Positions 18,387 to 35,222 of a stretch of 64,000 nt of DNA are shown piece by piece. The stretch covers positions 8,025-72,024 of the forward strand of contig CAYSKV010000002.1 in NCBI GenBank assembly GCA_964431805.1, written 5' to 3'. This DNA is from an uncultured Gammaproteobacteria bacterium. Lineage in GTDB: Bacteria; Patescibacteriota; Patescibacteriia; Patescibacteriales; GWC2-42-12. Below the pieces are notes generated by a model, which did no database searches, was not told where the DNA came from, and saw nothing but the letters and a program-made list of their open reading frames with translations. Every line of letters begins with the position of its first letter. The first letter of the stretch is position 1. The position numbers were made by a program, and so were the translations under genes.

Positions 18387-18968
18387 TTACTTTTCATATT
18401 CTAAAATGGCCTGAAGAACTTTTGAATCTGACTTTAACGGAGTAGCATCGGATATATTACATTGGTAAATAAGAACTTTGCTTTCTGGACCATAAGTTTC
18501 TTTACCTTGTTTAACTAACCGCATATCACCTGTACTAGTAAAAATTTTATTATTTTTAATACTCTCTTTTTGATCATAATCATAATAAACATTATTAATT
18601 ACTACCGGATCAGCATTTACATCAGAGACCTGGCCATAATATACTAAACCATTATCTTTTAAAGTAACCGCATACCAAGTTTGATTTTTATCTGCTCCGC
18701 TAAACCAGTTCTTATTTTTAAAAAATAAAAAATAAAATGCGGCAATAATTATTAAAACCGCTAAAACAAAAACCACGGCTTTAATTAAACCTTGATGTGA
18801 ATTTTTTATTTTAGGCTGACTAATTTTTTTTAAATCTGTTTTAGCTTCAGTAGAATTTTCTTCATTATAAATTTTTTCTAGAGGCGTAACAGGTTTTTTA
18901 ATCATAGCGGCTTTCCTTTGCCGCTCCATTTTACCTCTAAGATCTACCGTTTGTTGAAAATCTGACAT
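18387..18968 (-). CDS. Membrane-anchored protein, unknown function
   Basis: 193 aa with a single TM (AVVFVLAVLIIIAAFYFLFF) and no family I recognise. It is the last gene of the apparent giant-gene operon. Confidence 0.6.
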   Translation of the reverse strand: MSDFQQTVDLRGKMERQRKAAMIKKPVTPLEKIYNEENSTEAKTDLKKISQPKIKNSHQGLIKAVVFVLAVLIIIAAFYFLFFKNKNWFSGADKNQTWYAVTLKDNGLVYYGQVSDVNADPVVINNVYYDYDQKESIKNNKIFTSTGDMRLVKQGKETYGPESKVLIYQCNISDATPLKSDSKVLQAILEYEK

Positions 18969-18983: not shown

Positions 18984-19823
18984 TTAATTTTCTATTAATG
19001 TTGATGGTGCAGTTTCGCTTTCCGTCACTCCATTATTCTCTTCCGGCAACTCAATAATATTAACATTAGTTGGTTCGTCGATAGTTGAAGTTTCTGAAGA
19101 GGTTGGAATTTCCGGTTCAGTGATTTCAGTGTTGGTTGTTTCTTCTGAAGTAGTGGCGGTATCAGTTGAAGTTGCAAAGATTTCCGGATGAGCGGCCACA
19201 TAATCATTGTAGATTTGGGTTAGGTTATCAGTACCGTCATTGGTTGTTTGATTATTGGTAGTTTCTGGGAGATTGAAATTTTCCGGCGCAGGCAGTTCTC
19301 GTTTAACTACCGGATCATAACCGGGGAAAACCGTGGAGGCTAAATCCAGGGTTAAACCGACTAAACCGCTGTATTCAGTAACTTCAATTCTGGTGGTTTG
19401 ACCTTGGGCTTGAGCTAAAATTTGCTCCTCGGTTAATTCTCTGATTCTGGCTTCATAGTGTTTGGCTAAAAATTTAGCCATGTATTCACCAATGTCTTGT
19501 TTGATCCTTTTACTGACTTTCTGGGTGTTTTGGTTTAATTGATATTGCCAGGCATTATCAATGATTACAATATCTAGATAGCTATAGGTGACATAATAGT
19601 ATTTTTCGTCTTGTTCAATAGTTTCAATTTTAAAATCCATGTTGAAGGTAGCTAAATCAACTGAGAGTAGCAGTGTATTATCTATACCCTCTATACTAGT
19701 TTGTTTCTGGCCGATATTTTCCGGACCGGCGGCTAGCGCGCCTCCGCCCACGATTAAAACTATAGCTAGAATGATAATAGTAGCGTTGTTGTATTTTAGA
19801 AAATTTATTATTTTATCAAACAT
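18984..19823 (-). CDS. Membrane-anchored protein with Thr/Glu/Pro-rich tail, unknown function
   Basis: 279 aa with an N-terminal TM (ATIIILAIVLIVGGGALAAG). It starts 9 nt after the giant gene's stop. Confidence 0.6.
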   Translation of the reverse strand: MFDKIINFLKYNNATIIILAIVLIVGGGALAAGPENIGQKQTSIEGIDNTLLLSVDLATFNMDFKIETIEQDEKYYYVTYSYLDIVIIDNAWQYQLNQNTQKVSKRIKQDIGEYMAKFLAKHYEARIRELTEEQILAQAQGQTTRIEVTEYSGLVGLTLDLASTVFPGYDPVVKRELPAPENFNLPETTNNQTTNDGTDNLTQIYNDYVAAHPEIFATSTDTATTSEETTNTEITEPEIPTSSETSTIDEPTNVNIIELPEENNGVTESETAPSTLIEN

Positions 19824-19832: not shown

Positions 19833-22800
19833 TTATTTTGTACATCTAAATCCTACATTATTATTTTGTTCTGCAGGACTATGCGATAAGTCAAGACTAT
19901 AGATTCCATCAAACCCTCTAATAAAACCTCTAACAGGAACGTCGCCTGCTCCGGTTAATATTTTACCAATTCCATTATTAGAAGATGTCAAATAATATGC
20001 GGGTTTAAGATATTGTAAAGATTTAAATGACGATATTAAATTATATTCCTGCCATTCATCTGAGAGCGGATTAATTGTATCATCTTGAGTAATATTTGAA
20101 TCTGTCCACTCACTCACCTCGCCCACTAAATTGTTAATCAAGTTATCATTATTTAATTTGTAAGATATGGAAGTGGTGGCGAGTTGCATGCCAGCAATAT
20201 TGGTATCGCTATCATTGTCAGGATTTTGCAAAATATTTTCAGCGATAGTTAACCATTCATTTTCACCAATTAAGTGATAACCCGTGCCTAGAGTTTGGCA
20301 AGCGATTTGAGCTTCGCCCTGAGAGATATTAGTTTTGATTTGGTCTAATTCATCTTTCATTAAATCTGCTTGGACGCAGAAACCAGGCAAGGTGCCATAT
20401 TTAGCTGAGCCAGGCACCCAGACAAAACCGTCTTCGCAATAACCCTCGAAAGCTCCGGCCACAACTTTGCCTTCAACGCCTAAATCAGCCATGGTTTCAT
20501 CAACCGCTGAGTCTAGGGCGTTAGAGCAATAACCGCCGGCGCAGAGCATAATACGACCGTCAACTAACATTGAGCCTGCGACTTTAACTTCACCGCTTTG
20601 AGCTATATTCATAATAGAGACGCCGTTAGCTTGAAAATCTGCGATATCGCCTGAACCTGATTGATTAACTATGAATGCGGTTTTAGTTGAGGAAGCGGTT
20701 ATTTCGGTTAGTTCAACAATCTTAACTTCTGGCTCTTGGCCTGGTTCTGAGACTGAATCTTTACCGATTATGATGCTGCCGTTTTCATCAAACGACATTA
20801 TATTCTCACCATTCTGGTTTTGTAAAAATAGAGCTTGTGGAGTAATACCGCTGGCGGCTTCGGTAAAGCGGAAATTGTTGGCAAAAATTAAATCACCGAC
20901 GTAGGAGTTAGTGGCGTGCAGAGTGCCTAAAACATCTAAATTACTGGCGATGGTTGAAGTACCGGTTCCGCCGACTTCGAGGAGGCCTGAGATATAGGCT
21001 GAATTATATTTATCGCCAGCGAGTAGATAGACTGGGGTGCTTGAACCAACCGTCAGAAGAGCTTGAGGAGAGGTGGTGCCGATGCCGACATTGCCTGAAG
21101 CGTCAATAATGAACGGCGTAGCGTCGGGAGAAGTAGAGTCTTCAACTATAAAACTCGGACCGGTACCGGTGTTGGTGACGGACAATTTAGCGTAAGGAGT
21201 AGTAGAGCCGATGCCAACTTTTCCAGTCGATAAAGTTGTTCCTGTTCCATCCATTCCGGTTGCAAAAATCAGATTGCCAATATTAAGTTGATTACTTGTA
21301 GTTGGAGATGTGAGTTCAACATCTTTTCCAATAAGTATGTTGTTTGCTCCAGAGCCTAAAACTGAACCGGAATCAGAACCGATTACAATATTATAATTGC
21401 CAACAGTTGTTGCTGATGCTTGATAACCAGCAGCATATCCTAAATATGTGCCATAGCTTCCTTGAGCATTTCTACCAGCACCATATCCTAGAGCATTATT
21501 GCTATTGTTGTTTGTAGTAAGACCAAAAAGAGCATGACTACCGAAAGCATTATTAAAAGAATATGAATAATTAGAATTGTTTCTTAAAGCGTTCTGGCCA
21601 AAAGCAGCATTGGATGATCCTGTTTGATTTCCTTGTAAAGTAGCATACCCAAAACCAGCATTGCCAATACCTGAAATTAGCGAGGCAACAGCGCCATTAC
21701 CAAAAGCATCATTATCATTTCCTGTTGTTAAGGCAGCTAAAGCTCCTGAGCCAAAAGCTGATGAAGTTGAACCTCTTGTAACAACAGGCATAGCACCATT
21801 TCCAAAAGCAGTAACATAATTTCCAAGCCTACCAAAAACTACTCCATCACGATAAATTATTCCTGCCGTTGTATTGTTTTTATTATAAATCCAATCAGTA
21901 GCAGTTGTATCCATTGCGCTATTGTCACTATAAGTTGTTGTGGTGTTGTCATTTATGGTTCCAATATAATAAAGGTAATAATAATCTCCGACGGTTCCAG
22001 CCTGCGAGCGATAAATCTTTCTTTTAGTAACTCTTGGATCGGTAGAAGTTGGAATATTTGAAATTGAAACACTGAAATCACTAGCAGAAGTTATTGTAGG
22101 GAAAATAGTATAGGAGGCTCCACCTGTATCTCCATCCGCTGTCCCGAAGGCTACCGCGTAATAATATGTTCCGGCTGGTATTGATCCGGCGCCACTATTA
22201 GTTAGAACCATTCCTTGAGTTTGAGCATTTGTTGGATTAGCCACCGTATCAAAATTAAAGTTTCCTGCTACTTCAAGAGTTTTTGATATTGTTGTGTCAT
22301 ATGACTGCCCGATTTTTACCCTATTGTCATCACGGGCCATGATAATATTATTGCCGGATGAATTATTAACATTAAAACTATAAGTGGATGATGTTGATCC
22401 CGATCCGATTATGCTAAGTCTTGAGGTAGGTGAAGTCGTTCCAATTCCCACATTACCATTACTCGCCACAGTTAAATAAGTTGATGTAGCGGCACCAGCG
22501 GTTGAAGAAGCTACAACGAACAAAGGAGCAGAACCACCCAAAGTATTTTCTACTGATAATTTAGCATAAGGAGAAGTTGTACCGATGCCGACGTTACCAG
22601 ATGTGGAATCTATAGTCATTCTCGCAGTATCATTAGTGAAAAATTGAAGTGGTGTTGCATTATCTGTTCCAAACACCGTTGCATATGTCAAGCCTCCGTT
22701 ACCAAATATTCCTGTTCCCGCACTACTTGAAACCCCAATTCTTCCTGCTCCCAAACCAGCGTTATTAAAAGCAATATAATAACCGGAAGTTGTATCTACT

Positions 22801-25800
22801 CCGATTGTTCCTCCATATGCAGAAATTGATCCAGTGGTTGAAAATGAATTTGCAGTAACTCCTGAATTAAAAGTAAAGTTTACTCCAGAACTTTTTGTTA
22901 TAGAACCATCACCCAAAGAAATACCGCCCGTAGAACCATTTCCAAAAATAGCATTTGAAGTTGAACTTGCTCTAAAAGTACCGGCGACATCTAGCGAATA
23001 ACTTGGATTCGTCGTGCCGATGCCGACATCGCCGGAGTTATCAATTACCATTTTCGTAGTAACTGCTCCGAAGCCGGTGCCGAAGGCCAGACCGGTCGCG
23101 CCCGCGCCGAATGTATAGCCTCTAATATCGGCCAATTCCGAACCCGAGCTGGTGCCGTTGCCCGTGAAGACAATCCGCGGACCGCTACCGACAGTAGCGG
23201 AAGCCACGGCCGCCTGGAGTTTAAGCACATTTTGTCCGCTCGTACTTACCGCCGCCGAGCTATAAACATCCAGCAAGGTATTGGGCGTAGTTGTGCCGAT
23301 CCCGACATTGCCTGAAGCGTCAATAATGAACGGCGTAGCGTCGGGAGAAGTAGAGTCTTCAACTATAAAACTCGGACCGGTACCGGTGTTGGTGACGGAC
23401 AATTTAGCGTAAGGAGTAGTAGAGCCGATGCTGACATCGCCGGAGTTATCAATTACCATTTTCGTAGTAACTGCTCCGAAGCCGGTGCCGAAGGCCAGAC
23501 CGGTCGCGCCCGCGCCGAATGTATAGCCTCTAATATCGGCCAATTCCGAACCCGAGCTGGTGCCGTTGCCCGTGAAGACAATCCGCGGACCGCTACCGAC
23601 AGTAGCGGAAGCCACGGCCGCCTGGAGTTTAAGCACATTTTGTCCGCTCGTACTTACCGCCGCCGAGCTATAAACATCCAGCAAGGTATTGGGCGTAGTT
23701 GTGCCGATACCGACGTTGCCGCTACCTTTCATAACAAAACCAATTGTGTCGACAGTTGAAGTTAAGCCAGCAGAATATCTAAAAGCAATTGCGTCATTAA
23801 TATCATTATTTAATAAATCAAAAACAAAATGATTATTTGCTGCTGATGATAAACGAGTAGCATACGACGTAGAGCCAGGATTTAAACCAGAAACATTAGA
23901 ATATGGATCTATAATTAAACCTCCACCAATTGCTGTTGAAGGGAGTACCGTTATAACATCTGCTCCAATAGTTTCATCTTTTAAATAAAAATTGCCGCCG
24001 TGAGTACGTATACTATAAGAACGAAGGGTTGCATAATTATCATCTAAAGTAATTTTGGGATTATCAGATTGTAGATAAAGTAAACTATTTGGACTCGTCG
24101 TCCCAATTCCCACATTCCCGTTACTAGCTATATATAAACTGCTGGTCGCTGTCCAGGCAGAATTTTGATAAGTTAAAGTTTGCCCGGTTGCGCCGATTGG
24201 CAAAGAATCAATACCTGCCGTAAATAAAGTTGAAGTAGCTACCCACTCAGTAGCTGAACCAGTGGTTTTTAAAATCATACCGTTAGTTCCGGCCGATGAT
24301 AATGAATCATACAATGCTCCGGTTAGAGCCATATTGCCGGCGACTGAGAGAGTTTGATAAGGGGAAGTTGTGCCTACACCAAGATTAGTCCCATCAAATA
24401 CAAAATTAGCGTTATCAGTTAATCTTCCATTTGTTGTAGCAAAAGGAATACGACCAGAAATAAGATCAATCCCATCATTTAAAACAAAACCTTTTCTATC
24501 ACCAACAACACTCCCTGATTGTAACTCTATTCTTCTAACGCCCATCCAACTTTCAGTAGACCATCTATCTGCGAATTTAAATGCGTAATATCGATATGCA
24601 GTATTATTTGTAACATTTATATATTTAGGATCGGCCTGATCTGCTGCAACATGTTGATCAAAAGTAGATTGAGAAGTTGTTAGCTGAGTCCAATTAGTGT
24701 CTATTCCATAAGTAAGTTCAGCAAATGCGTTCGCGTCATTAGAACCCCACAAAGTGAAATTTTTCACACCACCGCCAGTTGATCCTCCGTAATGATGAGC
24801 ATTCTCATAATATATTCTTGTTACTACCATACTTGAACCAAGATCTATATGGAATCGCTGATTAGTGATACTGCCATTTGCCCCTACCCATGAATTATTA
24901 TTTTGTTGACTTCCTGTAACTGATAATGATGGATTAGTAGCATAATAAGGCCAATAAGATGCATCATATATTGATGTTGCTTTGACGTAAGTATCTGAAT
25001 AAGCTAAAGGATAATTTGAAACAAAGCCGTTTGAATTTATTGATCCATAAAATGAATTACCGTCAAATTCTATTGCCCCAGCCTCAGATGTAGCTAATAA
25101 TGTCCCGGCTGTAAATTTAAGCGGAGCAGCCCCGGCGGTAGTGGTTCCTGCCGCTAGATGCAAAAACGCTGATGGAGAGGTAACACCAACCCCAATATTT
25201 CCATTCGCCTCTATATATAAACTCGAAGTCGCAGTCCAGGCAGAATTTTGATAAGTTAAAGTTTGGCCGTTTGTTCCGGTTGGTAAAGTACTAACTCCGG
25301 CCGTGAATAAAGTTGAAGTCGCTACCCACTCAGTAGCCGAACCGGTAGTTTTTAAAATCATGCCGTTAGTTCCGGCTGACGATAATGAATCATAAAATGC
25401 TCCTGTTAAAGCCATGTTGCCAGAAACGGAAAGAGTCTGATAAGGAGAAGTTGTGCCGATGCCGACGTTGCCGGTATTTGTTATGGTTAAAAAAGCATGA
25501 GATGTTGCCGCAGTTTCTCTGTCATGAGCTGATACAGAACTCTTTCTTCCAACTACATAATAATCTGATGATATATTATCATAAGGTCGTCCACTAAACC
25601 ATTCTGTATCGCTACTTCCATTAAACATATACAAACCCTGCCCTCTCTTAACGTCAGCTGAAGTATTTAATACTAAAGCACCGCCATGATAAAGTGATGA
25701 ATTTGTACCAGTAATAGTTAATTCTGGATATAAACCAGAAATTTCCACAGCAGTTGTCGGATTCGTAGTTCCAACGCCCACATTTCCATTACTCGCTACA

Positions 25801-28800
25801 GTTAAATAAGTTGATGTTGCCGCGCCAACGGTTGAAGAAGCAATAGTAAACAATGGCGCTAAACCACCTAAAGTATTTTCTACAGAAAGTTTAGCGTAGG
25901 GAGAAGTTGTACCGATGCCGACATAGCCATTTCCATCTATTGTAAACCGCTCCTGTCGTGTTGAACCATCGCTTGTAAATAGACCTAATTTTCTAGTTCC
26001 CGATCTAGCAATTCCAACGGCTGTTGCATCAATTGTAGATGAACCGCCAGATCCAAAAAACCAACCATCTTGTGTAGCGCCATTAAAATCTCTATCAAAA
26101 ATTGTTCTAGGCTGAGTTTCTGTTGAATAGTAATGAGCCATTTCTCCTGTTGTTGGTATAACCCATACGTGACTAGGTGTCGCTATATCACCAAGCCTAA
26201 TACTTCCATTAACATCCAGCTTATACCCAGGACTAACCGTTCCAATTCCAATATTCCCATTCTGTAATACATTCAAGCTGCCGTTTCCGGCAACTAGCCC
26301 GCCGGCAAAAGTTGAAGTTGCGGTCGTTGAAGTTGCGTTAAAATATTCGGCTACTGCCGGACCTACTACGGAGAGTTTAGCATATGGAGAAGTTGTCCCA
26401 ATTCCGACATTGCCAGTAGCTGTTATTCTCATCCTTTCGGTTGCAGCAGGACCAATAATAATATCCCCACCACCAACTTCAGTTCCTCCCTTTTTAGCTG
26501 TCAGAAATGATGTTGTGCCATCTATTGCTACTGAAATAACAGCGTTATAATGGCTTTCATCTAGGGTATCCTTGTTCGTATCAATTGATATAAATGATTG
26601 CTTGCCAACGCCGATTGAAGAATAAAGGGGGGCAATAACTAAAGCGGCATTTACATCCGAGGCGGTATTCCCTGTTAAAAATTGTGTTCTCGGATAATTA
26701 GCAGAAGGGCTATAGGCAGTAAACACGCCCTTAGCATTCGTTACTTCGCTAGAGATATAAGCTTGGTTCGTTATTAAATCTGACACTGATAACTTATACC
26801 CCGGCGCTGCCGTCCCAATCCCGACATTTCCATTAGTTAGTATAGAAACTCTTTCATTGCCAGCGCCAGAGGCAGAATCAAAGATAGATAATCGTCCGTT
26901 GTCAGAATTTTTAATAGACCAGGTCGAGGTGCCAATGTTTAGTGTGTCGAACCAACCTTCATTCCAACGATACGAAGAAGAGCCAATGTTATAGGTTAAA
27001 TTAGCGCTTGGTAGAATATCTCCAGAAACTGATAATCCTGAGCTAGTGATTGTTCCGGTGGCGGTTAGATTACCGGCAATATAGGCATCGCCGACTACGG
27101 AGAGTCTGGCGAATGGAGAAGTTGTACCGATGCCGAGGTTAGTTCCATTAAATACAAAATCAGCAGTATCAATTAATCTTCCATTGGTTGTTGCAAAAGG
27201 AACACGGCCAGCAACCAAATTAACGCCATCATTCAAAACAATGCCTTTTCTGCTACCAGCTTCATTTTCACCTTCTTGTTGTTGTAATTCTATGCGACGA
27301 ACCGCCATAAAATAAGAACCCCAATTATCTGCAAATTTAAAAGCGTAATATCTATAAGCAGTATTATTTTCAACAGTTATATATTTTGGATCTGGCGTAT
27401 TAGCTGCAACATGTTGTTCAAATTCGGTTTCTAAAGTAGTTAACTGTGTCCAGTTAGTATCATCCCCATAAGTTAAATCATCAAATGCGCTTGAATCGTT
27501 TGACCCCCAAAAAGTGAAATGTCTTACGCCAGCTTCCGTATAGTTTCCACTGTCATGGGCATTCTCATAATATATTTTAGTAACAGTTTTAGCTGAACCT
27601 AAATCAATATGAAATCGCTGATTAGTAGTTGCGCCATTGCTTGCATTCCAATTATCATTATTATCATCGCCAATTAAAGATTTATTTGGATCGGTAGCAA
27701 AATAAGCCATATATTGAGGCGTATTTTCTGATGTTGCTCTAACATAAGTCGCTGATTGTTCAGGCGGATATTGCGTTTGATATTGATATCCGGATGTTAT
27801 GGTTAAATAATAATTATCGCCTAAAAATTCCATAACTCCTGCTTCAGGATCAGTTAATAATGTCCCGGAAGTAAATTTGAGCGGAGCTGTGCCTACTGCG
27901 GAAGTTCCCGCGCCCAAATGCAAACGCGCAGTTGGTTCAGTAGTTCCAATTCCTACATTACCACTGACAATCAAATTATTAGTAACTTCACCATTTAATA
28001 TATTAGTAATTCCATCACTGCTAACTCGTAACATTTCTGATCCATTAAGTGCAACACCAAAGATGGTAGTATGGATAACCTCCTTAATCTGCTCATAACC
28101 ACGGATTATTCCTGTTCTAGTACTCAAGAGCATATCCTTATCTCCGTCATCATCCAGATCAGCAAAAGCAGGTATATTAATACCACCAATAACAGCAATT
28201 GCCCAGTCAGGATTATTTGTCCAAACTGGCGCGGAACCATCTCCAGTATTTTCAAAGCCATAAACACTATTAGCAGCATAAAGCCAGTTACCAATGAATA
28301 AATCCTGATCACCGTCATCATCAAAATCACTCAAAATAGGATAAATTGCGTAGTTAGCAGGTATTGGGATGTTCCAACTCGGCTCGGCCGACCAGCTTGG
28401 TAAAGAAACTGTGCCGATGTTTTCATAGCCAAGTATTATATATGCACCGCCATTATTGTAAAAACCCACCATTAAGTCATAATCACCGTCACCATCCAGA
28501 TCGCCCAGGGTCGGCAAATTCATATCTGTATTGGTGATTACCGGAGTATTCCATTCCGTCTTAAGTGCCCAAGCTGGTGATGTTGCGTTTCCTGTATTTT
28601 CAACGCCATAAGCCATGTCAGCAGTGGTTCCAACTAAAAGATCGAAGTCGCCGTCATTATCAAGATCCGCAACAGTTGGATAGCCCCATGAACCAAAATC
28701 TGTTGGAACATTCCATTCTGGTCTAGCTGTCCAAGTCGGCGATGTTGCGCTTCCCGTATTTTCATAAGCACCAATTATTCCATCTAGATTCATTAATAAA

Positions 28801-31800
28801 TCATAGTCTCCATCATTATCTAAATCAGCCAAAGCTGGGACAACATCCAAGCTTGGTATATTTTCCATATCCCAATCGGTTTGCGCTTCCCATCCTTGAA
28901 AAACCGGTGCTCCCTCTCCCGACTCTGTTGGATTAATATATACCGAACCCTGACCGATTCCTGACCCAGTTGGAGTTCCGGAAAAAGTTGCCAAACCGCT
29001 GACTCCCAAAGTGCCAGCTATATTCAACAAGGAAGTTGGGTTATCAGTTCCAATGCCAATATTGCCTGAAGCAGCAATTCTCATTCTTTCAGAGTTATTT
29101 ATAGAAAAAGCAATTGATTGATTTGCAGTGTCTGGAAAATAAATATTATCCAGATAAAAAGTATTGGCCGAATCAGCATTAACTATAGTAATGATAATTT
29201 GATCAATTGCATCCTTGCTGGCATTGACTACTCCGGAAATATCCCAGGTAATATTTTGAAAAGCATTTGCCGAAGTCAAATCAGGAGTGATTTCAGTGGT
29301 TGTGCCTCCGCTGTCATGTAAACCAATTTTTATATTTGATCCGGTGCGATTGGATCTCAGATCGAAATAGATAGTATTTATATTTGAGAGATTCAGGGGA
29401 ACATCTAATGTTCTAGTCAATGTTTTATTCAAGCTGTCTGTAATAGTAGCCTCGCCTCTTAAGGAATATGATCCCTGAGTTTTTATAGTTGATTCTGCAT
29501 AAGCAACCAGATTAGTATCGGAACTTCCATATTCAATGTGCAGCCTGGGAGCTGTGGAAACACCTGCTTCATAGGAATTAGCTGCATATATATAATTTCC
29601 CGAAGTTGATAAATTATCATGATCATCAAAAAATAGCGCCAGATTAGTCACTGCTCCCAAATCAGCAATTTCCTGGATCACACTGGAAATATCCGGAGAA
29701 TTATTCCAGCTACTTGCTGTCCAAGTTGCATCATCCCAGCCGACCTGAGCTGTTGTAATGTTATTATTATTAGCTCCGCCTACTATTGTTCCACGCCTGG
29801 TTTGGTAGTCTGACAAACTGGAAAAGGTGCTTGCTGAAGTGCTTAGTTCTCCGGTTATTTTGGATTTTGTGCCACTGCCGCCAATCTGAGGCAAGCCCCT
29901 AACTGCATAGAAACTTAGATAGGCACTTGTTATAGTAACTCCTTCAGGAATATTAACTCCGGCGAAACGCAAACCAGAACCTACTCTATCAATTGAAGCG
30001 AATGATTCCAGTGTTCCGGCTCCTGCTAAGCCTATGCTGGTATCAAAGAGCCAAGAACCTGAATTATAATATCCTAAACCATCATCTGTGTCTGCGCTTA
30101 CTTGTGCGTCAATTGTGCCGGTAGGTCCGGAGTTTTCACTTTCATAATCTGTCGGATTTTCTGCATTGTCAATAAAATCACCCGCTGATTGGGTGGTTAA
30201 AGAAATACTATTCCCAGCAGTAGTTAGTAAACCAGCCGAATTAATATAAAGACCTTCCGTTCCAACACCTAATCTATTATTTACATAATCCCAATAAAAA
30301 TTAGGGTTGTCTTGCGCAAGATTACCATCAGCATCAATGAATAAAACTGATTCAGGGGTACCATAAATAACTTCATTACCGATAGCAAGTATGCCTAAAG
30401 TCGAAGTCGCTACCCATTGCGTTGTTAAACCGGTAGTTTGCAAAACCATACCATTCGTTCCGGCGGCTGACAAAGAATCATAAAATGCTCCGGTCAAAGC
30501 CATATTACCGGCGACGGATAACGATTGAAATGGAGAGGTTGTGCCGATTCCGATGTTGCCGTTTGAATCAATCCTCATCCATTCTGTGCCGGCAGTAGAA
30601 AATTTTAGTTGGTCGTTATCAGCGCCGGCAGAATCTTCGGCAGTTATTTTTGTATCTTGATCAACGTCAATCACGCCGCCGAGTGATCCCCAGGAAGTAT
30701 TACCATAACCTTCAAATTGAGAAGTTTCTGAATTATATCTAATAGCGCCGGTGATTGAAGTCGGACGCTCGGCCGTTGTACCAACCGGTATAATTAAACC
30801 ATCAGTACCAACAATATGAAAAATAGTTTGTGGGCTCGTTGTCCCAATTCCCACATTCCCACCGTCTAAAATGGTAAAGACTTCGTTAGCGCCATCAAAG
30901 AGGTTAATAATATCTCCATCACCGTCTTGTCTTACGGTTAGAGCTGTAGTTGAGCTGGCAGAATTAAGGGTTAATTCTCTGAGGTTAAGAATCATTTGGT
31001 CGGTGGTTGAACTATTGCCAAAAGTTAGAATGTCGTTGATGGTATCAATGTTGATGTTGTCATTAGTCCCGTCGCCCACGGTTAGAGCTGAAGTTGAGGC
31101 TACATCTAAATCTAGAGCGCCGTTTAAATCTATGTCGCCATTAAACTGAGAGGTGCCAGAATGGTTTAAGCTTCCGGTAATCGTCACTATGTCGTCGCTG
31201 GTGTTAACCGAGAAAGTGTCGTTAGTGCCGTCACCCACGGTTAGGGCCAGGCCATTTTGGTCTATGTTTAAGAGATTATTTAAATCAACCATGCCAGCGA
31301 TTAAAACATGTTCGCCGTTTAGATAAGTGTCACCGGCTACGGTTAGGCCGCCTTCGCCGGCTGATAGGCTTTGCGAACCGACTGGCCCGGTAGAGCCTAA
31401 ACTCGGAACTTCAGTATGGCCGGCTGAGAAAGTGCCGGTGACATAAGTGTTGTTGTTGATTATTTGAGTACCGGTGATTAATGAACCGTCGGTAATAGTA
31501 ACTCCGTTTAGTTTAATTGAACCGGTCACTATTAGATCTTTTACTGTTAGAGCAGAATTAAATACTGCGTCCCCTAGAAATTCGCTAGCGCCTGAAACAG
31601 TTAGTTTGTCTTTTAGTTTAGTCGCACCAGAGACATTTAATGCGCCGCCGACAGTGGTATCGCCGATGATGGAGAGATTTTTGGGGGTGGGAGCAACTAC
31701 CTGCCTTACTGGTGAACTATTTTGGACTATGGTAGTTTGATTAACTATTTTTTCTGTGGTGGTTGGAGATTGTTCAACCGCCTGTCCCGTACCGGCCTTA

Positions 31801-33464
31801 CCACTACCAATTTCAATTAAATAATATTTGGCATATTTATTTTTAAGAGATTTTGGAAAAATTATATCTATAAATTTAGAATACAGATCATGAAGCGACC
31901 ATAAAGAACGACCGGCTTCGCTAGTTAAATAATTTTTGCCGTTACTATTATACTCTTGAATTGAACCTCCGATTTGTTGCGCTGAATTATTAGTTTGATT
32001 AATTGCGTTTCCTGCCTGGGCTAATTTAGCTTGGCCGTTTTTTGAAACTAACCCAACGCCTTTAGCCGTGGCCAAAGTAAGCTTGGCTAATTTACGACCA
32101 AAGTCTAAAGATAATTCTTTTTGTCGATCGCCTAAGTCTTCTAAAACTACGCTTGCATTATATTTTGTTTGATTAATAACTTCTTGCCCGCGTCGCGAAG
32201 TTGTATTAGCTAAAGCTAAAAGGCGTGGCATCGGCGAAGAAGTAAAAGAAGCAGTTTCCGATACGCCCGCAACCTTGCCTTGTCTTTTATTTGATTCGGT
32301 TTGTTCTGGTTTAGAATTAACTTCTTGTATTAAATAAGCTATTTCACCAACCGATTCACCTTGATAATTTACAAAACTTTTTAAAATAGCTAAACTGCTC
32401 TGACCAAAATTTACAATTTCATCTGGTAAAATTGTTAAACCTAAATTTAAACCGCTAAATTCATTTTTAGCTAACTGAAAAAGCGGATTAACATTTTTTT
32501 GATATTGAACCTGCCAAAAACCAGTAATAAATAATGCCTGATCTTTTACCGCGCCTAATTTTAAGGCTAAAATCTGATTGCGGCGCTTAAAATTATTTTC
32601 TAATTTTAAGCTTGAAGCGCTAATACGGTCAGCTAAAGTTAAAAACAAGCTATCTAAAGAATTCTTGCTTTCCTGAACTAATTCTTTGCCTGGAATTATT
32701 TTATTAGCGCCAATTTTAATACTGGGAGTAAAAACATTAAAAGAAATTAAAGCCAAAACAATAATAATGGTTACTAAGGCGGTTTTAAACAAACGAGGAA
32801 AAAAACTTAAATTTTTCTTATTAGAAAAAAATTCTTTTTCAGTTTTTATTTTTTTAACGACAGAGCCTTGCTGAGTTAAAAAATCTTTAGCTTCTTGATG
32901 TAAATTTTCTTGCCATTTAACTTTAAGCCTAATTTCCGGTTCAACAAAGTCGGCGATAAATTTAGCTTCGGGAGTAATAATTTTATTATTTAAAATTTCC
33001 TCTAGCTTATTTAATGAAATTTCGTCTGCGGTATAACCTTTTTCTTTAACACTTTTTTGAACAATTTTATTTTCCTCGTCAACCTTTTTAACGGCAGAAT
33101 CTATTTTTTCTTGTTTAGTTTGATCGGCAAATTTTTCTTTGACCGCCCGCTCAACTAAATTATCAATCTGACTTTTTAATTTAGCCGAAGCTACAGACTC
33201 GGAAATAAGTTGTTTATTAGAAACTTTATTAGACGACAATTCTTGAACCGCTTCCGAAGATAGTCTTTTTTCGTCTCGAGCATGCAGCCCTAAATATTGA
33301 TCAAACCATTCTTTAGTCGAATAATATTTATTACCAATTTTTTTAGCCTTTAATTTTTTTCGTTGCACTAAAATAGAAACATAGCCAAAACTATAAGAAC
33401 TAGCCTCGGCTATCCTTTTTAAAGGTATTAGTTTTTTGTAATCATCAGATTGTGAGCGACGCAT
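19833..33464 (-). CDS. Giant (4543 aa) mosaic cell-surface protein. Domain order: N-terminal HTH-like segment, TM anchor, beta-helix/tail-fibre-like repeats, FG-GAP/VCBS-like Asp repeats, two discoidin-like modules, YadA-head-like repeats, C-terminal FGE-sulfatase/C-type-lectin-like domain
   Basis: A single uninterrupted 13.6-kb ORF in the track. Motifs read from the translation: IPLKRIAEASSYSFGYVSILVQRKKLKAKKIG (N-terminus); LFKTALVTIIIVLALISFNVF (TM); about 20 copies of GN[VI]GIGTT[ST]P; five DLD[ND]DGD[YF]DL-type repeats; NQRFHIDLGS...IYYENAH...NTAYRYYAFKFAD (twice); AFGxxA repeats; C-terminal ..GYHLIGENEWLTIAENI..VSEWT..NVGFRCTK. Confidence 0.85.
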   Translation of the reverse strand: MRRSQSDDYKKLIPLKRIAEASSYSFGYVSILVQRKKLKAKKIGNKYYSTKEWFDQYLGLHARDEKRLSSEAVQELSSNKVSNKQLISESVASAKLKSQIDNLVERAVKEKFADQTKQEKIDSAVKKVDEENKIVQKSVKEKGYTADEISLNKLEEILNNKIITPEAKFIADFVEPEIRLKVKWQENLHQEAKDFLTQQGSVVKKIKTEKEFFSNKKNLSFFPRLFKTALVTIIIVLALISFNVFTPSIKIGANKIIPGKELVQESKNSLDSLFLTLADRISASSLKLENNFKRRNQILALKLGAVKDQALFITGFWQVQYQKNVNPLFQLAKNEFSGLNLGLTILPDEIVNFGQSSLAILKSFVNYQGESVGEIAYLIQEVNSKPEQTESNKRQGKVAGVSETASFTSSPMPRLLALANTTSRRGQEVINQTKYNASVVLEDLGDRQKELSLDFGRKLAKLTLATAKGVGLVSKNGQAKLAQAGNAINQTNNSAQQIGGSIQEYNSNGKNYLTSEAGRSLWSLHDLYSKFIDIIFPKSLKNKYAKYYLIEIGSGKAGTGQAVEQSPTTTEKIVNQTTIVQNSSPVRQVVAPTPKNLSIIGDTTVGGALNVSGATKLKDKLTVSGASEFLGDAVFNSALTVKDLIVTGSIKLNGVTITDGSLITGTQIINNNTYVTGTFSAGHTEVPSLGSTGPVGSQSLSAGEGGLTVAGDTYLNGEHVLIAGMVDLNNLLNIDQNGLALTVGDGTNDTFSVNTSDDIVTITGSLNHSGTSQFNGDIDLNGALDLDVASTSALTVGDGTNDNINIDTINDILTFGNSSTTDQMILNLRELTLNSASSTTALTVRQDGDGDIINLFDGANEVFTILDGGNVGIGTTSPQTIFHIVGTDGLIIPVGTTAERPTSITGAIRYNSETSQFEGYGNTSWGSLGGVIDVDQDTKITAEDSAGADNDQLKFSTAGTEWMRIDSNGNIGIGTTSPFQSLSVAGNMALTGAFYDSLSAAGTNGMVLQTTGLTTQWVATSTLGILAIGNEVIYGTPESVLFIDADGNLAQDNPNFYWDYVNNRLGVGTEGLYINSAGLLTTAGNSISLTTQSAGDFIDNAENPTDYESENSGPTGTIDAQVSADTDDGLGYYNSGSWLFDTSIGLAGAGTLESFASIDRVGSGLRFAGVNIPEGVTITSAYLSFYAVRGLPQIGGSGTKSKITGELSTSASTFSSLSDYQTRRGTIVGGANNNNITTAQVGWDDATWTASSWNNSPDISSVIQEIADLGAVTNLALFFDDHDNLSTSGNYIYAANSYEAGVSTAPRLHIEYGSSDTNLVAYAESTIKTQGSYSLRGEATITDSLNKTLTRTLDVPLNLSNINTIYFDLRSNRTGSNIKIGLHDSGGTTTEITPDLTSANAFQNITWDISGVVNASKDAIDQIIITIVNADSANTFYLDNIYFPDTANQSIAFSINNSERMRIAASGNIGIGTDNPTSLLNIAGTLGVSGLATFSGTPTGSGIGQGSVYINPTESGEGAPVFQGWEAQTDWDMENIPSLDVVPALADLDNDGDYDLLMNLDGIIGAYENTGSATSPTWTARPEWNVPTDFGSWGYPTVADLDNDGDFDLLVGTTADMAYGVENTGNATSPAWALKTEWNTPVITNTDMNLPTLGDLDGDGDYDLMVGFYNNGGAYIILGYENIGTVSLPSWSAEPSWNIPIPANYAIYPILSDFDDDGDQDLFIGNWLYAANSVYGFENTGDGSAPVWTNNPDWAIAVIGGINIPAFADLDDDGDKDMLLSTRTGIIRGYEQIKEVIHTTIFGVALNGSEMLRVSSDGITNILNGEVTNNLIVSGNVGIGTTEPTARLHLGAGTSAVGTAPLKFTSGTLLTDPEAGVMEFLGDNYYLTITSGYQYQTQYPPEQSATYVRATSENTPQYMAYFATDPNKSLIGDDNNDNWNASNGATTNQRFHIDLGSAKTVTKIYYENAHDSGNYTEAGVRHFTFWGSNDSSAFDDLTYGDDTNWTQLTTLETEFEQHVAANTPDPKYITVENNTAYRYYAFKFADNWGSYFMAVRRIELQQQEGENEAGSRKGIVLNDGVNLVAGRVPFATTNGRLIDTADFVFNGTNLGIGTTSPFARLSVVGDAYIAGNLTATGTITSSGLSVSGDILPSANLTYNIGSSSYRWNEGWFDTLNIGTSTWSIKNSDNGRLSIFDSASGAGNERVSILTNGNVGIGTAAPGYKLSVSDLITNQAYISSEVTNAKGVFTAYSPSANYPRTQFLTGNTASDVNAALVIAPLYSSIGVGKQSFISIDTNKDTLDESHYNAVISVAIDGTTSFLTAKKGGTEVGGGDIIIGPAATERMRITATGNVGIGTTSPYAKLSVVGPAVAEYFNATSTTATSTFAGGLVAGNGSLNVLQNGNIGIGTVSPGYKLDVNGSIRLGDIATPSHVWVIPTTGEMAHYYSTETQPRTIFDRDFNGATQDGWFFGSGGSSTIDATAVGIARSGTRKLGLFTSDGSTRQERFTIDGNGYVGIGTTSPYAKLSVENTLGGLAPLFTIASSTVGAATSTYLTVASNGNVGVGTTNPTTAVEISGLYPELTITGTNSSLYHGGALVLNTSADVKRGQGLYMFNGSSDTEWFSGRPYDNISSDYYVVGRKSSVSAHDRETAATSHAFLTITNTGNVGIGTTSPYQTLSVSGNMALTGAFYDSLSSAGTNGMILKTTGSATEWVATSTLFTAGVSTLPTGTNGQTLTYQNSAWTATSSLYIEANGNIGVGVTSPSAFLHLAAGTTTAGAAPLKFTAGTLLATSEAGAIEFDGNSFYGSINSNGFVSNYPLAYSDTYVKATSIYDASYWPYYATNPSLSVTGSQQNNNSWVGANGSITNQRFHIDLGSSMVVTRIYYENAHHYGGSTGGGVKNFTLWGSNDANAFAELTYGIDTNWTQLTTSQSTFDQHVAADQADPKYINVTNNTAYRYYAFKFADRWSTESWMGVRRIELQSGSVVGDRKGFVLNDGIDLISGRIPFATTNGRLTDNANFVFDGTNLGVGTTSPYQTLSVAGNMALTGALYDSLSSAGTNGMILKTTGSATEWVATSTLFTAGIDSLPIGATGQTLTYQNSAWTATSSLYIASNGNVGIGTTSPNSLLYLQSDNPKITLDDNYATLRSYSIRTHGGNFYLKDETIGADVITVLPSTAIGGGLIIDPYSNVSGLNPGSTSYATRLSSAANNHFVFDLLNNDINDAIAFRYSAGLTSTVDTIGFVMKGSGNVGIGTTTPNTLLDVYSSAAVSTSGQNVLKLQAAVASATVGSGPRIVFTGNGTSSGSELADIRGYTFGAGATGLAFGTGFGAVTTKMVIDNSGDVSIGSTTPYAKLSVTNTGTGPSFIVEDSTSPDATPFIIDASGNVGIGTTTPNTLLDVYSSAAVSTSGQNVLKLQAAVASATVGSGPRIVFTGNGTSSGSELADIRGYTFGAGATGLAFGTGFGAVTTKMVIDNSGDVGIGTTNPSYSLDVAGTFRASSTSNAIFGNGSTGGISLGDGSITKSSGVNFTFNSGVTANSFSTTGSISAYGGTIGVDTTSGYYIAFNNAGLGAGRIGVSSSAGTGIFGNGGLTYATVFGTDNATPLQFFTNDTARMTIDSTSGNVGIGTTSPYAKLSVENTLGGSAPLFVVASSTAGAATSTYLTVASNGNVGIGTTSPTSRLSIIGSGSTSSTYSFNVNNSSGNNIIMARDDNRVKIGQSYDTTISKTLEVAGNFNFDTVANPTNAQTQGMVLTNSGAGSIPAGTYYYAVAFGTADGDTGGASYTIFPTITSASDFSVSISNIPTSTDPRVTKRKIYRSQAGTVGDYYYLYYIGTINDNTTTTYSDNSAMDTTATDWIYNKNNTTAGIIYRDGVVFGRLGNYVTAFGNGAMPVVTRGSTSSAFGSGALAALTTGNDNDAFGNGAVASLISGIGNAGFGYATLQGNQTGSSNAAFGQNALRNNSNYSYSFNNAFGSHALFGLTTNNNSNNALGYGAGRNAQGSYGTYLGYAAGYQASATTVGNYNIVIGSDSGSVLGSGANNILIGKDVELTSPTTSNQLNIGNLIFATGMDGTGTTLSTGKVGIGSTTPYAKLSVTNTGTGPSFIVEDSTSPDATPFIIDASGNVGIGTTSPQALLTVGSSTPVYLLAGDKYNSAYISGLLEVGGTGTSTIASNLDVLGTLHATNSYVGDLIFANNFRFTEAASGITPQALFLQNQNGENIMSFDENGSIIIGKDSVSEPGQEPEVKIVELTEITASSTKTAFIVNQSGSGDIADFQANGVSIMNIAQSGEVKVAGSMLVDGRIMLCAGGYCSNALDSAVDETMADLGVEGKVVAGAFEGYCEDGFVWVPGSAKYGTLPGFCVQADLMKDELDQIKTNISQGEAQIACQTLGTGYHLIGENEWLTIAENILQNPDNDSDTNIAGMQLATTSISYKLNNDNLINNLVGEVSEWTDSNITQDDTINPLSDEWQEYNLISSFKSLQYLKPAYYLTSSNNGIGKILTGAGDVPVRGFIRGFDGIYSLDLSHSPAEQNNNVGFRCTK
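21085..21214. repeat. 130-bp exact repeat (copy A') inside the giant gene
   Basis: By eye, the stretch ccgacattgcctgaagcgtcaataatgaacggcgtagcgtcggg...gagccgatgc is identical to 23302-23431. Confidence 0.85.
23025..23708. repeat. Perfect tandem duplication X-A-X (period 408 bp) inside the giant gene; the X block is conspicuously GC-rich
   Basis: By eye, 23025-23300 is identical to 23433-23708 (276 bp). This also explains the two identical antisense 61-aa ORFs in the track (23045.. and 23453..). The 130-bp block 23302-23431 between them recurs at 21085-21214. Confidence 0.9.
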
Positions 33465-33804
33465 GGGGATGTATCGTTTTGAGCTTACTTTTTATTTTTT
33501 CAGCTCGGGAACTATAATTAATATATTTATTTAATTTTAGAGCAAACTTACTTTAATGATTATCAAATGCTTATCAATTTTATGTCTTTATTATAACATA
33601 AAAACGCCTAAAATTATATGTTTTATTTGGTTTAAAATGTTTAAACTATTATTTTAATCTTATACTTTAAAATGTCACCACTTTTTAATGCAAAACTGAT
33701 TAGATAGCTATTACTTTTAGACTTACATTAGGTTAAATTTTAAGGCTTAATTTTAAAACTGCTTTTTAAAAAAAATTGATCGCACACAAACATAAATCTA
33801 ATAA

Positions 33805-33834
33805 ACAAAAAATCGCCATGAGCTCGGCGATTTA
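33805..33834 (-). terminator. Rho-independent terminator after the O-antigen-ligase-like gene
   Basis: The minus strand reads AAATCGCC-gagctcat-GGCGATTT followed by TTTGTTTAT. Confidence 0.6.
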
Positions 33835-33877: not shown

Positions 33878-35218
33878 TTAAACGACATCGTTAAATTTTA
33901 AACTTTTTCTTTTTTCGCTTTCTACCATCCCTAGAATAAACCAAAAAAATAATATACCAAAATGTAAACTAAAGAGCCAATGATCAATAGACATTAAAAT
34001 AATCAATACAATTAAACTTGTGACTGCTACGTTATTACGAAAATTAAAACATCTTAAAATTAAATATATTATTAACCCAAGAAAAAATAATAACCCGAAG
34101 ATTCCGGTCTCCGCCCATATCAATAAAAACACATTATGAGTTGGTTGATAATAAAAATTTTCTTGATTTGGTATTTGGCGGCTTAAAGCTAGGGTGTAAT
34201 TACCTAAACCAACTCCGGTTATCGGATATTTTTTTATTATCCCTATAGCCTCGTGATATGAAGCAACTCTTTCTACTTTTGATTTTATTTCTAGCCGCGA
34301 ATTATTCGTTAATCTAGTTATAACTAATTCGTTGTATTGAAAAAATAAAATACCAATTAAAATACTGGAAAATAAAATAGCGGTTAGCATTTCTTTCTGT
34401 GATTTTAAATCTCGCCTGATTAGAAAACTGATTAACATAAAAAATCCTCCAGCTAAAACCGCTAACCAGGCTCCGCGAGAAAAACTAAAAAATAAAGCCA
34501 CGGAAAATATTGCTAAAAATATCCAATTAACTATTTTAAAAAATTTAACATTAAAAATTTGTCTTGCAACCATCTGTCCAATTAACAATAATATTCCGAT
34601 CGCTAAAATGCCGCCTAACATATTCGGATGATCAAGTCCGCCATAAGCTCTTAACCATCTTTCGCCAATACCGTCTCTGGCTACAAATTCAACCACCGAA
34701 GTTCCGAGTTGCGCCGGATCATGCGTAGCTAAACCTAACCACTTATTAGAAAAACTTGATTGATTAAAAAATTGCCAGATACCTAAAATCGCTTGTAAAA
34801 AAATTCCAGCGAGCGCCGCGTAAATCAATTTTAATTTTTCATAATTAACGTTCGCAATAAGCCAAAACAATCCCACGCCTAATATTAACCAACTAAATTT
34901 ATATAAAGCCAATAATTTATTGGCCGCCAATAAGCCGGAAATAGCTGAAATTAATAAAAATCCGCCTAAAAACCAGTCAATAACTCTACTATTATGAGAA
35001 TCCAAACCATTTTCATTGCGGGTTTGGCCAGCGACCAAGGAATAAAATACCCAAACAACATATAGTAATAAAACTAAAATCAATAATATATCTACTCCAT
35101 ATAAACTATACGTTTGATATTCATTAAAGCCGGCTTTAATAATCCAGCGGGTTTGCAAAGGCAATAAAAAAACTAATAAATATAAACCGTATTCAATTGT
35201 TTTAGAAAAATATTTCAT
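33878..35218 (-). CDS. O-antigen ligase / Wzy-like polytopic membrane protein
   Basis: 446 aa with about 10-12 TM helices and a central loop ..FSFSRGAWLAVLAGGFF.. typical of the Wzy_C/O-antigen ligase family. Confidence 0.65.
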   Translation of the reverse strand: MKYFSKTIEYGLYLLVFLLPLQTRWIIKAGFNEYQTYSLYGVDILLILVLLLYVVWVFYSLVAGQTRNENGLDSHNSRVIDWFLGGFLLISAISGLLAANKLLALYKFSWLILGVGLFWLIANVNYEKLKLIYAALAGIFLQAILGIWQFFNQSSFSNKWLGLATHDPAQLGTSVVEFVARDGIGERWLRAYGGLDHPNMLGGILAIGILLLIGQMVARQIFNVKFFKIVNWIFLAIFSVALFFSFSRGAWLAVLAGGFFMLISFLIRRDLKSQKEMLTAILFSSILIGILFFQYNELVITRLTNNSRLEIKSKVERVASYHEAIGIIKKYPITGVGLGNYTLALSRQIPNQENFYYQPTHNVFLLIWAETGIFGLLFFLGLIIYLILRCFNFRNNVAVTSLIVLIILMSIDHWLFSLHFGILFFWFILGMVESEKRKSLKFNDVV

Positions 35219-35222
35219 AATT

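Follow-up and report, generated by a model that had tools for sequence, protein, structure and literature searches.

To our knowledge, the means by which ultrasmall episymbiotic Patescibacteria recognise and hold their hosts are largely unknown beyond type IV pili. The closest known counterparts of the protein considered here are the mosaic adhesive trimer (MAT) proteins of the predator Bdellovibrio bacteriovorus, surface fibres with beta-helical shafts and exchangeable tips that are kin to phage S74 tail spikes (PMC10769870; Caulton et al., 2024; PDB 8ond, 8ojn, 8ol4). MATs are ~600-1100 residues long and begin with a signal peptide and a conserved ~130-residue beta-rich domain, 13 of 21 end in an S74 chaperone, their shafts follow the consensus V-G-G/N-pi-x-x-P-x-x-x-L (142 Å per 370 residues in Bd2133), and the NS74-type member Bd2740 ends in an Mtd-related C-type-lectin fold (PMC10769870). 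Giant membrane surface proteins with a predicted role in attachment have been described from Vampirococcus lugosii, a Candidate Phyla Radiation (CPR) bacterium (PMC8080830), and giant genes encoding many transmembrane (TM) helices and SecA-like domains, again with a predicted attachment role, from the Omnitrophota (bioRxiv 10.1101/2023.11.21.568195). Here we describe a gene for a 4543-residue protein in a 64-kb stretch of a Patescibacteria genome (the whole stretch is called the window below), whose product is very probably an anchored adhesive fibre that combines a MAT/tail-fibre-type shaft and a lectin-fold tip with a cytoplasmic head resembling DNA-binding winged helices.

The giant gene is real. 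On recheck, the single open reading frame (ORF) of 4543 codons and its spacings, as reported earlier from the sequence alone, were matched exactly (9 nt to the downstream ORF at 18984-19823, a further 15 nt to the ORF at 18387-18968, and 413 nt upstream), with zero internal stops across 13.6 kb. The parts of the protein, in residue numbers of the 4543-aa product, are as follows.

19833-33464, minus strand: giant ORF, 4543 aa, ATG start, stop codon included
33279-33437, minus strand: predicted winged helix-turn-helix (HTH) head of excisionase/MerR type, aa 10-62, cytoplasmic
32790-33278, minus strand: Lys/Glu-rich linker, aa 63-225, cytoplasmic, of highly variable length among homologues
32727-32789, minus strand: TM helix, aa 226-246, the sole one, N-in/C-out
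31665-32726, minus strand: juxtamembrane ectodomain, aa 247-600, conserved in the anchor family
20805-31664, minus strand: mosaic fibre shaft, aa 601-4220, repeated MAT/tail-fibre beta-helix units with globular modules inserted
28095-28847, minus strand: five FG-GAP/VCBS-type repeats, aa ~1540-1790, with DxDxDG motifs
27066-27962, minus strand: module 1, with an F5/8-type-C (discoidin)/DUF5000 core, aa 1835-2133
24312-25202, minus strand: module 2, aa 2755-3051, 59% identical to module 1
21380-21860, minus strand: Gly/Ala/Asn-rich AFGxxA repeats, aa ~3868-4028, with a 17-19-aa period
19836-20447, minus strand: tip with a C-type-lectin/FGE-sulfatase fold, aa 4340-4543, ending VGFRCTK

The fibre assignment is carried first by the shaft. 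When aa 3590-3800 were compared with all PDB chains by phmmer, the only matches were Bdellovibrio fibre proteins, namely Bd2133 (8ond, E 4.5e-11) and the Bd2439-type fibre 8ojn (E 3.3e-6). The alignment covers a recurring unit, RM(T/R)ID..GNxGxGTxxPxxxLxV (RMTID.SGNVGIGTTSPYAKLSV in the giant protein, RMRID.TSGNLGLGTAAPTSALHV in Bd2133), which takes the form ...RMxID..GNVGIGTTSPxxKLxV... along the shaft and contains the punctuation motif GN[VI]GIGTT[ST]P noticed earlier; the count of about 20 copies given at that time holds for relaxed forms of the motif (16-18 or more) but not for the strict form, of which there are 10. The recurring G-x-x-P-x-x-x-L loop motif of MAT shaft units is likewise present by sequence homology, and two PHROG tail-fibre families, 18345 and 9942, match the shaft at E ~1e-46 over 5 and 8 stretches, respectively. 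In addition to homologous beta-helix units, the giant protein shares with the MATs a mosaic build and swappable C-terminal adhesive tips, in this case a non-S74 C-type-lectin-fold tip as in the NS74 member Bd2740, and both fibre types belong to bacteria that live on other bacteria. In contrast to the MATs, it is 4543 residues long, shows no Pfam match to the S74 chaperone, carries FG-GAP and discoidin insertions, and begins with a predicted cytoplasmic winged helix, a linker and an uncleaved-looking TM helix.

The inserted modules are well delimited. Five D[LF]D[NGD]DGD motifs (aa 1547, 1600, 1655, 1713 and 1769, spaced by 53-58 residues) and a Pfam FG-GAP_3 match above its cut-off (35.9 versus 26.9 bits) bear out the five Asp-rich FG-GAP/VCBS-like repeats proposed earlier. 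The two diverged modules with a discoidin-like core were also rightly recognised: each is ~300 residues long and matches both DUF5000 (48.7 bits versus a cut-off of 25) and F5_F8_type_C (39.6 versus 28.2), with two stretches for each family. By homology, the shaft appears to be interrupted by carbohydrate-binding-module-like insertions as well. The AFGxxA repeats exist, with the 17-19-aa period measured at aa 3886-3975, but the relationship to YadA heads suggested for them finds no echo in Pfam (no match for aa 3560-4150 at E<=1) or in the PDB sequences (no match for aa 3860-4070 at E<=10). A YadA-type trimeric autotransporter was rejected as a candidate for the protein as a whole, given no YadA_head/Hep_Hag match and a C-terminus with a lectin fold rather than a membrane-anchor barrel.

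The tip gives the second line of evidence. On the giant protein itself the FGE-sulfatase family PF03781 remains below threshold (12.3 bits versus a cut-off of 23.3, E 0.13), and a sequence search of the PDB with the tip returned nothing useful. PF03781 is matched by 13 of 36 aligned tip homologues (best E 3e-7), and an AlphaFold2 model of aa 4340-4543 (predicted local distance difference test, pLDDT, >=86) finds with Foldseek TaqVP (8e-5), Mtd, the snaclecs (snake-venom C-type lectins) and the FGE-like domains of EgtB and OvoA. Compared with viral models, it matches phage tail-collar-fibre and FGE-like proteins. The FGE-sulfatase-like C-terminus of the sequence-only reading was therefore right at the level of the fold, by way of homologues and model. 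The closest solved structures are variable proteins of diversity-generating retroelements (DGRs). The last 323 residues have 63 homologues, nearly all from Patescibacteria and mostly fragments that end at contig ends. All six cysteines of the protein lie within aa 4308-4541, those at aa 4308 and 4313 just N-terminal of the tip and the others inside it (4343-4541), and by homology the disulphide-containing tip would recognise a ligand of the host cell surface; by analogy with Mtd and the MAT Bd2740, such binding is its most likely role. Among the aligned tip homologues, the S74 chaperone domain PF13884 is present in three and collagen repeats in four. Trimeric proteins have such features, which favours a trimeric fibre; by this analogy the giant fibre is probably trimeric. 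Scaled roughly from the dimensions of Bd2133, its predicted length would be of the order of 100 nm.

The likeness to phage tail fibres with C-type-lectin tips (Mtd, 1yu4; TaqVP, 5vf4) thus extends over the shaft families phrog_18345 and phrog_9942 and the fold of the tip, and possibly, by analogy with assembly genes, to a small downstream gene that travels with the tip. Unlike a phage tail fibre, the giant gene is chromosomal and syntenic, and its product is membrane-anchored and without a baseplate-attachment domain. The earlier reading of a surface adhesin or host-interaction fibre fits the MAT and tail-fibre homology, the lectin-type tip and the origin from Patescibacteria.

The N-terminal quarter-thousand residues are of a different kind. 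A hydropathy scan found one TM-grade segment only, at aa ~219-252, in agreement with the single TM placed earlier about 230 residues in, and the N-terminal 250 residues are strongly basic. Together with the confinement of the cysteines to aa 4308-4541, this indicates an N-in/C-out orientation with ~4300 residues outside, so that a type-II single-pass protein with a MAT/tail-fibre-type shaft and a lectin-fold tip is strongly supported. The juxtamembrane region matches nothing in Pfam or NCBIfam, and aa 247-620 have no PDB match.

The head (aa 10-62) is near-invariant among homologues (71% mean column identity) where their linkers and ectodomains diverge. Its AlphaFold2 model (pLDDT 87-91 over aa 11-60) has beta-alpha-alpha-beta-beta-alpha topology (E13-14, H15-21, H26-34, E40-43, E46-49, H51+), and its best compact structural match is the Xis protein of mycobacteriophage Pukovnik (4j2n, probability 1.0, root-mean-square deviation 1.6 Å over 47 aa), followed by BldC, TraN and GlnR. 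A profile built from 12 family sequences found 37 further proteins in a database of 5.8 billion sequences and reached two genuine members of PF12728 (AlpA/excisionase), with E-values of 7e-4 and 8e-4, while the head of the giant protein itself does not reach the gathering threshold of PF12728 (HTH_17). Model and profile thus place the head among the excisionase/MerR-type winged helices, and the HTH-like N-terminus called from the sequence is substantiated in this way. The invariant residues lie on the second, putative recognition helix (Y28, S30, Q34, R35) and in the wing (K39, K42, G44). There is no second copy of the head inside the window.

Some proteins with this fold are known to form head-to-tail assemblies on DNA. 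BldC, which shares its fold with Xis, binds direct repeats head-to-tail as cooperative multimers (PMC5859096). The giant protein resembles BldC, Xis and TraN in fold topology, in the reach of its family profile to PF12728 and in the phased direct repeats upstream of its gene (see below); it differs from these soluble proteins of 55-120 residues in that its head, whose DNA binding is a prediction, is covalently joined to a membrane anchor and a giant ectodomain. Xis proteins also bind DNA head-to-tail. A second comparison is with ToxR/CadC and RodZ, which likewise begin with an HTH on the cytoplasmic side, cross the membrane once and continue in a domain outside the cytoplasm. ToxR and CadC combine an OmpR-type winged helix with a small sensor domain, RodZ has an XRE-type HTH that binds MreB, and none of them bears a fibre; Pfam and NCBIfam gave no sequence relationship to ToxR, CadC or RodZ, and no Trans_reg_C match. 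A ToxR/CadC-like regulator was rejected as a candidate: the topology fits, but the predicted DNA-binding fold is of the excisionase/MerR type.

The anchor is no ordinary signal sequence; its head defines a Patescibacteria-wide family. An exhaustive hidden Markov model search of 1.84 billion representatives gave 232 proteins at E<=1e-10, a number that rises to 1461 at E<=1e-3. A scan of one genome per species gave 47 loci, nearly every one with a TM helix behind the head, in Parcubacteria, Falkowbacteria, Moranbacteria, Gribaldobacteria, Sungiibacteriota and metagenome-assembled genomes labelled Saccharibacteria (L041, L045, L057). Most members are only 140-180 residues long and consist of a head, a linker and one TM helix, after which the protein soon ends; certain members bear two or three tandem heads. 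Among the best 150 representatives, 16 exceed 1000 residues, up to 4486, and many of the head-bearing ORFs in the scan are >1000 to >3400 residues long and run to the end of the contig or of the fetched stretch. A motif, G[KRQ][VI]AG[VI][SE]E, recurs in the family: the form G[QRK][VI]AG[VI]EE is found in ~40% of the listed representatives by a strict regular expression, with the protein end few residues later, and the giant protein has GKVAGVSE at aa 396-403 (32256-32279, minus strand). In the ~140-aa members G[KRQ]VAG lies few residues past the TM helix, which fits a signal-peptidase-I site (V-A-G at -3 to -1); such a site was rejected for the giant protein, where the motif lies ~150 residues past the TM helix.

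Both ends recur in two relatives that are complete, P0075 of 2494 aa and P0132 of 3078 aa: each carries the head and the same tip in one ORF, at 55% and 52% identity, respectively, and ends IGFRCAK, while the middles differ. The comparison of termini with the giant genes of relatives that had been proposed earlier thus shows both ends to be shared, and anchor and fibre as a single gene are strongly supported by these two relatives and by the native codon composition described below. Module-level turnover is indicated by a 92%-identical relative (L011/P0055) that is without aa ~890-1460.

The origin of this arrangement is visible in related genomes. The window is collinear with L001 over RmuC, the 313-aa gene, Wzy_C, the anchor gene, a 193/198-aa TM protein, an M16 peptidase and a helicase, and the L001 anchor gene encodes 372 residues that align to aa 1-243 and 338-490 without any fibre. 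In L003 and L004 an anchor of 654 residues is followed by a separate 978-aa fibre gene with a 4-nt overlap, which in L004 has its own signal anchor. In 11-15 loci the anchor gene comes directly after the 313-aa/Wzy_C pair, and a second recurrent locus, directly after rpsI, is occupied by a minimal member of 140 aa in L006 and L007 and by the 2494-aa P0075 in L058. Comparison thus shows the anchor gene at a conserved locus alone, beside a separate fibre gene, or fused to it as in the window, and an origin of the giant gene by fusion of a conserved anchor gene to a fibre gene is strongly supported by these alignments. The union of an HTH-like head with a giant fibre, called odd and unexplained in the sequence-only reading, is indeed present; the oddity gives way to a recurrent family architecture that arises by fusion.

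The 413-bp region upstream of the gene, described earlier as an AT-rich leader, has that length, but it is not merely AT-rich, as it carries invariant, operator-like blocks. These were seen in an alignment of 12 loci (L001, L003 and L011-L020, with the window region 33465-33640), whose Wzy_C proteins are 41-87% identical.

33590-33600, minus strand: extended -10-like block TATGTTATAAT, invariant or near-invariant in the aligned loci
33560-33577, minus strand: TTGATAAGCATTTGATAA, a TTGATAA-N4-TTGATAA direct repeat with an 11-nt period, candidate operator for the head
33529-33540, minus strand: conserved block CTAAAATTAAAT with a TAAAAT -10-like hexamer
33465-33471, minus strand: CATCCCC directly 5' of the ATG

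The blocks TTTTATGTTATAAT, TTGATAAGCATTTGATAA, CCTAAAATTAAA and ACACATCCCC-ATGCGTCG are invariant or nearly so, and the direct repeat stands at a fixed distance from the CTAAAATTAAAT block, with zero indels. The 18-mer TTGATAAGCATTTGATAA occurs once in the window and, among the loci, only upstream of anchor genes; L019 and L020 have 3-4 tandem 11-nt TTGATAA[GT]C[AG]T units. When GATAA-N6-GATAA was counted on both strands of 720 kb from 27 loci, 20 of 33 matches fell, in sense orientation, within the 6.75 kb that directly precede family genes (~64-fold enrichment). They cover 18 of the 27 loci, among them Wzy_C-type loci and also rpsI-type loci, the spacers of the latter being unrelated. Other head subfamilies are accompanied by other motifs: TTGATATCAA is found upstream in 6/6 Moranbacteria-type loci (53-fold enriched), and CCGATA/TATCGG in 8/15 loci of the "YSQEYLSLRARQ" head group (15-fold enriched). 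The Moranbacteria-type palindrome TATTTGATATCAAA was seen in two copies ~250-370 nt apart upstream of the family gene (L032, 9692-9707 and 9944-9959; L033, 6513-6528 and 6883-6896).

Since the leader carries operator-like repeats and has no conserved RNA structure, a membrane-tethered head that binds its own gene region is proposed. The winged helices would bind the phased TTGATAA direct repeats, which lie between the -10-like elements of the promoter/leader, in the head-to-tail mode of BldC and Xis. Such binding could serve autoregulation of the giant gene and could keep the locus at the membrane for as long as export of the giant ectodomain lasts. That contact with a host is passed on to transcription, through release of the head by force or by a protease, would be the weakest step. 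As a whole, an anchored tail-fibre-like adhesin with a self-leader-binding head is the explanation we favour, with somewhat better than even confidence. Its parts differ in strength: the anchored adhesive fibre is highly probable, recognition of the gene's leader DNA by the head is a nearly balanced proposition, and signalling of host contact is unlikely, the last because the minimal family members have almost no ectodomain.

Several observations weigh against this explanation. Pfam and NCBIfam give no match for aa 1-240 even at E<=1, and the Foldseek E-values of the head (0.08-0.4) are not significant, as is expected for a domain of only ~50 residues. The near absence of an ectodomain in the ~140-aa members argues against an ancestral role in sensing the outside, and a membrane-tethered head would have to reach the DNA, a plausible but so far predicted step. 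The motif statistics are phylogenetically non-independent, with subfamily motifs picked after inspection of the sequences, and are therefore suggestive; the repeats themselves could instead be bound by an activator, belong to a promoter whose spacer is overlong, or act as a linear signal in the RNA. Nor does the explanation cover G[KRQ]VAG or the CATCCCC before the start codon. The copy number of near-identical internal modules is unverified, and DNA binding, trimerisation, surface display and the ligand are all predictions.

Among other explanations, the head might be a protein-docking module for a cytoskeletal, division or secretion partner, in the manner of RodZ and MreB, with the leader bound by some other regulator. 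The extreme conservation of the head would fit any conserved partner, the layout of HTH, TM helix and ectodomain is that of RodZ, the minimal 140-aa members resemble structural membrane proteins, and family genes occupy housekeeping neighbourhoods; rodZ itself lies near M16 peptidase genes in Bacillus, a lead only, as the HTH types are mismatched. In fact, the predicted fold is of the excisionase/MerR and not the XRE type, there is no RodZ Pfam match, the invariant residues fall on the recognition helix and wing, and the phased repeats accompany the gene across unrelated loci, with a motif that differs by head subfamily. We therefore regard docking as unlikely.

About equally unlikely is a leader that acts as RNA, in the 5' untranslated region for the translation or stability of a very long mRNA, with the target of the head elsewhere. 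The conserved blocks do lie between -10-like elements and the ATG, and CATCCCC or (A)TCCCC abuts the start codon at two unrelated kinds of locus (including L006, L010, L021-L026 and L028) in a genome whose genes are without a Shine-Dalgarno sequence; within the window, no gene shows a Shine-Dalgarno sequence and no other gene has CATCCCC before its start. A variable hairpin also precedes the start (GAGCT..AGCTC in the window, AGCC..GGCT in L001, GAGCCTA..TAGGCTC in L003). Against an RNA element, RNAalifold found 0 conserved pairs over the 12-locus alignment, Rfam at its gathering threshold gave no leader match (two tRNAs only in the window), and conservation of the primary sequence, an 11-nt direct-repeat period and a variable copy number are typical of protein-DNA sites.

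An assembly artefact that would account for the giant ORF in whole or in part, by a chimeric join or by collapsed or expanded repeats, is improbable. The main spot where short-read assembly could have collapsed or expanded a repeat is a duplication within the shaft.

23005-23712, minus strand: tandem 408-nt duplication (23005-23304 versus 23413-23712, 98% DNA identity)

A second pair, 21073-21214 versus 23290-23431, is 99% identical. Such repeats of 140-300+ nt with 98-99% identity would reflect either recent duplication, gene conversion or an assembly risk, and the copy number of the modules is therefore not verifiable from the sequence alone. Relatives are mostly fragments that end at contig ends, an exact look-up found no identical full-length protein on record elsewhere, and the 92%-identical relative is without the segment named above. 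On the other side, the frame is open over 13.6 kb, many independent assemblies show the head followed by an ORF of >3000 residues, and the presence of both termini in one ORF in two complete relatives argues against a chimeric assembly. The composition of the ORF points the same way. G+C is raised at 20-32 kb of the window, and the excess is located at codon position 2, in keeping with a Gly/Ala/Ser/Thr-rich product; G+C at codon position 3 is 0.21-0.38 along the entire ORF, similar to that of neighbouring genes and the rest of the genome. The fibre gene is thus native and not recently imported, and a prophage or foreign-DNA origin of the G+C rise was rejected on this codon-position analysis.

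As the best structural matches of the tip are DGR targets, a DGR was searched for. A hypervariable receptor-binding protein diversified by such an element would agree with TaqVP and Mtd as top matches, with a C-type-lectin/FGE domain at the extreme C-terminus, as in DGR targets, and with the frequency of DGRs in CPR bacteria. Within the 64-kb window, no reverse transcriptase was found among the annotated ORFs, the last 768 nt compared with the rest of the window (blastn, word size 7) gave chance matches only and thus no template repeat, and the repeat analysis revealed no family resembling a DGR template, which leaves a DGR target quite improbable. Least credible of all is a prophage- or tailocin-derived region encoding a phage tail fibre, for which the PHROG matches and a nearby Gly_rich_2 gene (phrog_2295, without an L001 counterpart) could be cited, given that there are no other phage genes, that the neighbours encode aminoacyl-tRNA synthetases, UvrABC, GyrA and an M16 peptidase, that the locus is syntenic across species with native codon usage, and that a TM anchor and a cytoplasmic head are not features of tail fibres.

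CPR giant membrane proteins and the MAT fibres of Bdellovibrio are already published. The giant protein resembles the CPR and Omnitrophota giants as a very long membrane-associated protein of ultrasmall host-dependent bacteria, and differs in its HTH head and conserved leader, neither of which is mentioned in the two reports (PMC8080830; bioRxiv 10.1101/2023.11.21.568195). In the literature searched, outside of which most subscription journals lay, nothing was found that describes the anchor family with head and TM helix, the fusion of its members to fibres, or the conserved leader; what appears new here is a tail-fibre-like adhesin on a new type of anchor. Patescibacteria share with the predator Bdellovibrio a set of phage-derived fibre components, which they deploy at a much larger scale, and the conserved, expandable anchor gene offers a view of modular evolution in which states of fission, fusion and loss are visible in related genomes. 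A DNA-binding-type head with an operator-like leader also amounts to a concrete hypothesis of a membrane-tethered regulator in bacteria where regulators are very few. More tentatively, and on balance doubtfully, the Patescibacteria family as a whole might place an excisionase-like head on repeats of its own promoter and, once fused to giant fibres, link a host-binding tip to a chromosomal site; if so, one polypeptide would provide for autoregulation or membrane tethering of the locus during export, or for a relay of contact through release at G[KRQ]VAG. Numbering at least 232 representative clusters, covered by neither a Pfam nor an NCBIfam model and nowhere mentioned in the literature searched, the family is a defined target for annotation and experiment.

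The surroundings are those of an ordinary chromosome of a low-GC Patescibacteria genome, with genes for aminoacyl-tRNA synthetases, UvrA/B/C, GyrA, RmuC, an AddA-type helicase and an M16 peptidase. Directly around the giant gene lie the following.

33878-36164, minus strand: Wzy_C (O-antigen-ligase-like) gene and 313-aa gene, the pair directly upstream of the anchor gene
33810-33833, minus strand: terminator-like hairpin and T-run after the upstream Wzy_C gene
18984-19823, minus strand: ORF279, with an N-terminal signal anchor, a globular part and an acidic Thr/Glu/Pro tail
18387-18968, minus strand: ORF193, a single-TM protein

The terminator after Wzy_C implies that the giant gene has its own promoter. 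No terminator-like site was found between the giant gene and the two small downstream ORFs, which makes co-transcription plausible. These two had been taken together as membrane proteins of one operon; they are indeed membrane-anchored and closely spaced, but they are not alike. ORF193 is the conserved neighbour of the anchor, 54% identical in L001, where it adjoins the fibre-less gene. ORF279 is lineage-specific: it is missing from L001, and a 90% identical copy occurs in L059 beside a gene fragment with a 96%-identical tip, where the surrounding genes are otherwise different. If the assembly genes of phage tail fibres are a guide, its product may be an assembly partner specific to this tip. 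The 313-aa gene has no Pfam match, and the position of the Wzy_C/313-aa pair next to the anchor gene may, speculatively, indicate glycosylation of the anchor or fibre.

Further surface-protein genes lie nearby. The Gly_rich_2 gene (12987-16511, minus strand) encodes 1174 residues, matches its Pfam family at E 2.5e-74, phrog_2295 at E 1e-164 and also a 'tail fiber assembly' PHROG, and contains internal ~850-nt repeats. Being without a counterpart in the syntenic L001, it adds another surface gene of phage-like, lineage-specific character to the vicinity of the fibre. An ORF of at least 1429 aa at 1-4287 (minus strand) has an N-terminal hydrophobic segment, extends past the window start and probably encodes a second giant surface protein. 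A 98-aa GIY-YIG protein (16548-16844, minus strand) recurs near giant surface-protein genes in three contexts at 55-63% identity, with counterparts at 1543-1839 of L059 and 1329-1637 of L010. Finally, two intergenic repeat families flank pheS and pheT (5281-5428, 7855-7934 and 8276-8342; one of 80 nt with 78% identity, the other of 67 nt with 84%), in which AATTTCTAA / TTGAAAATTG units are abundant.

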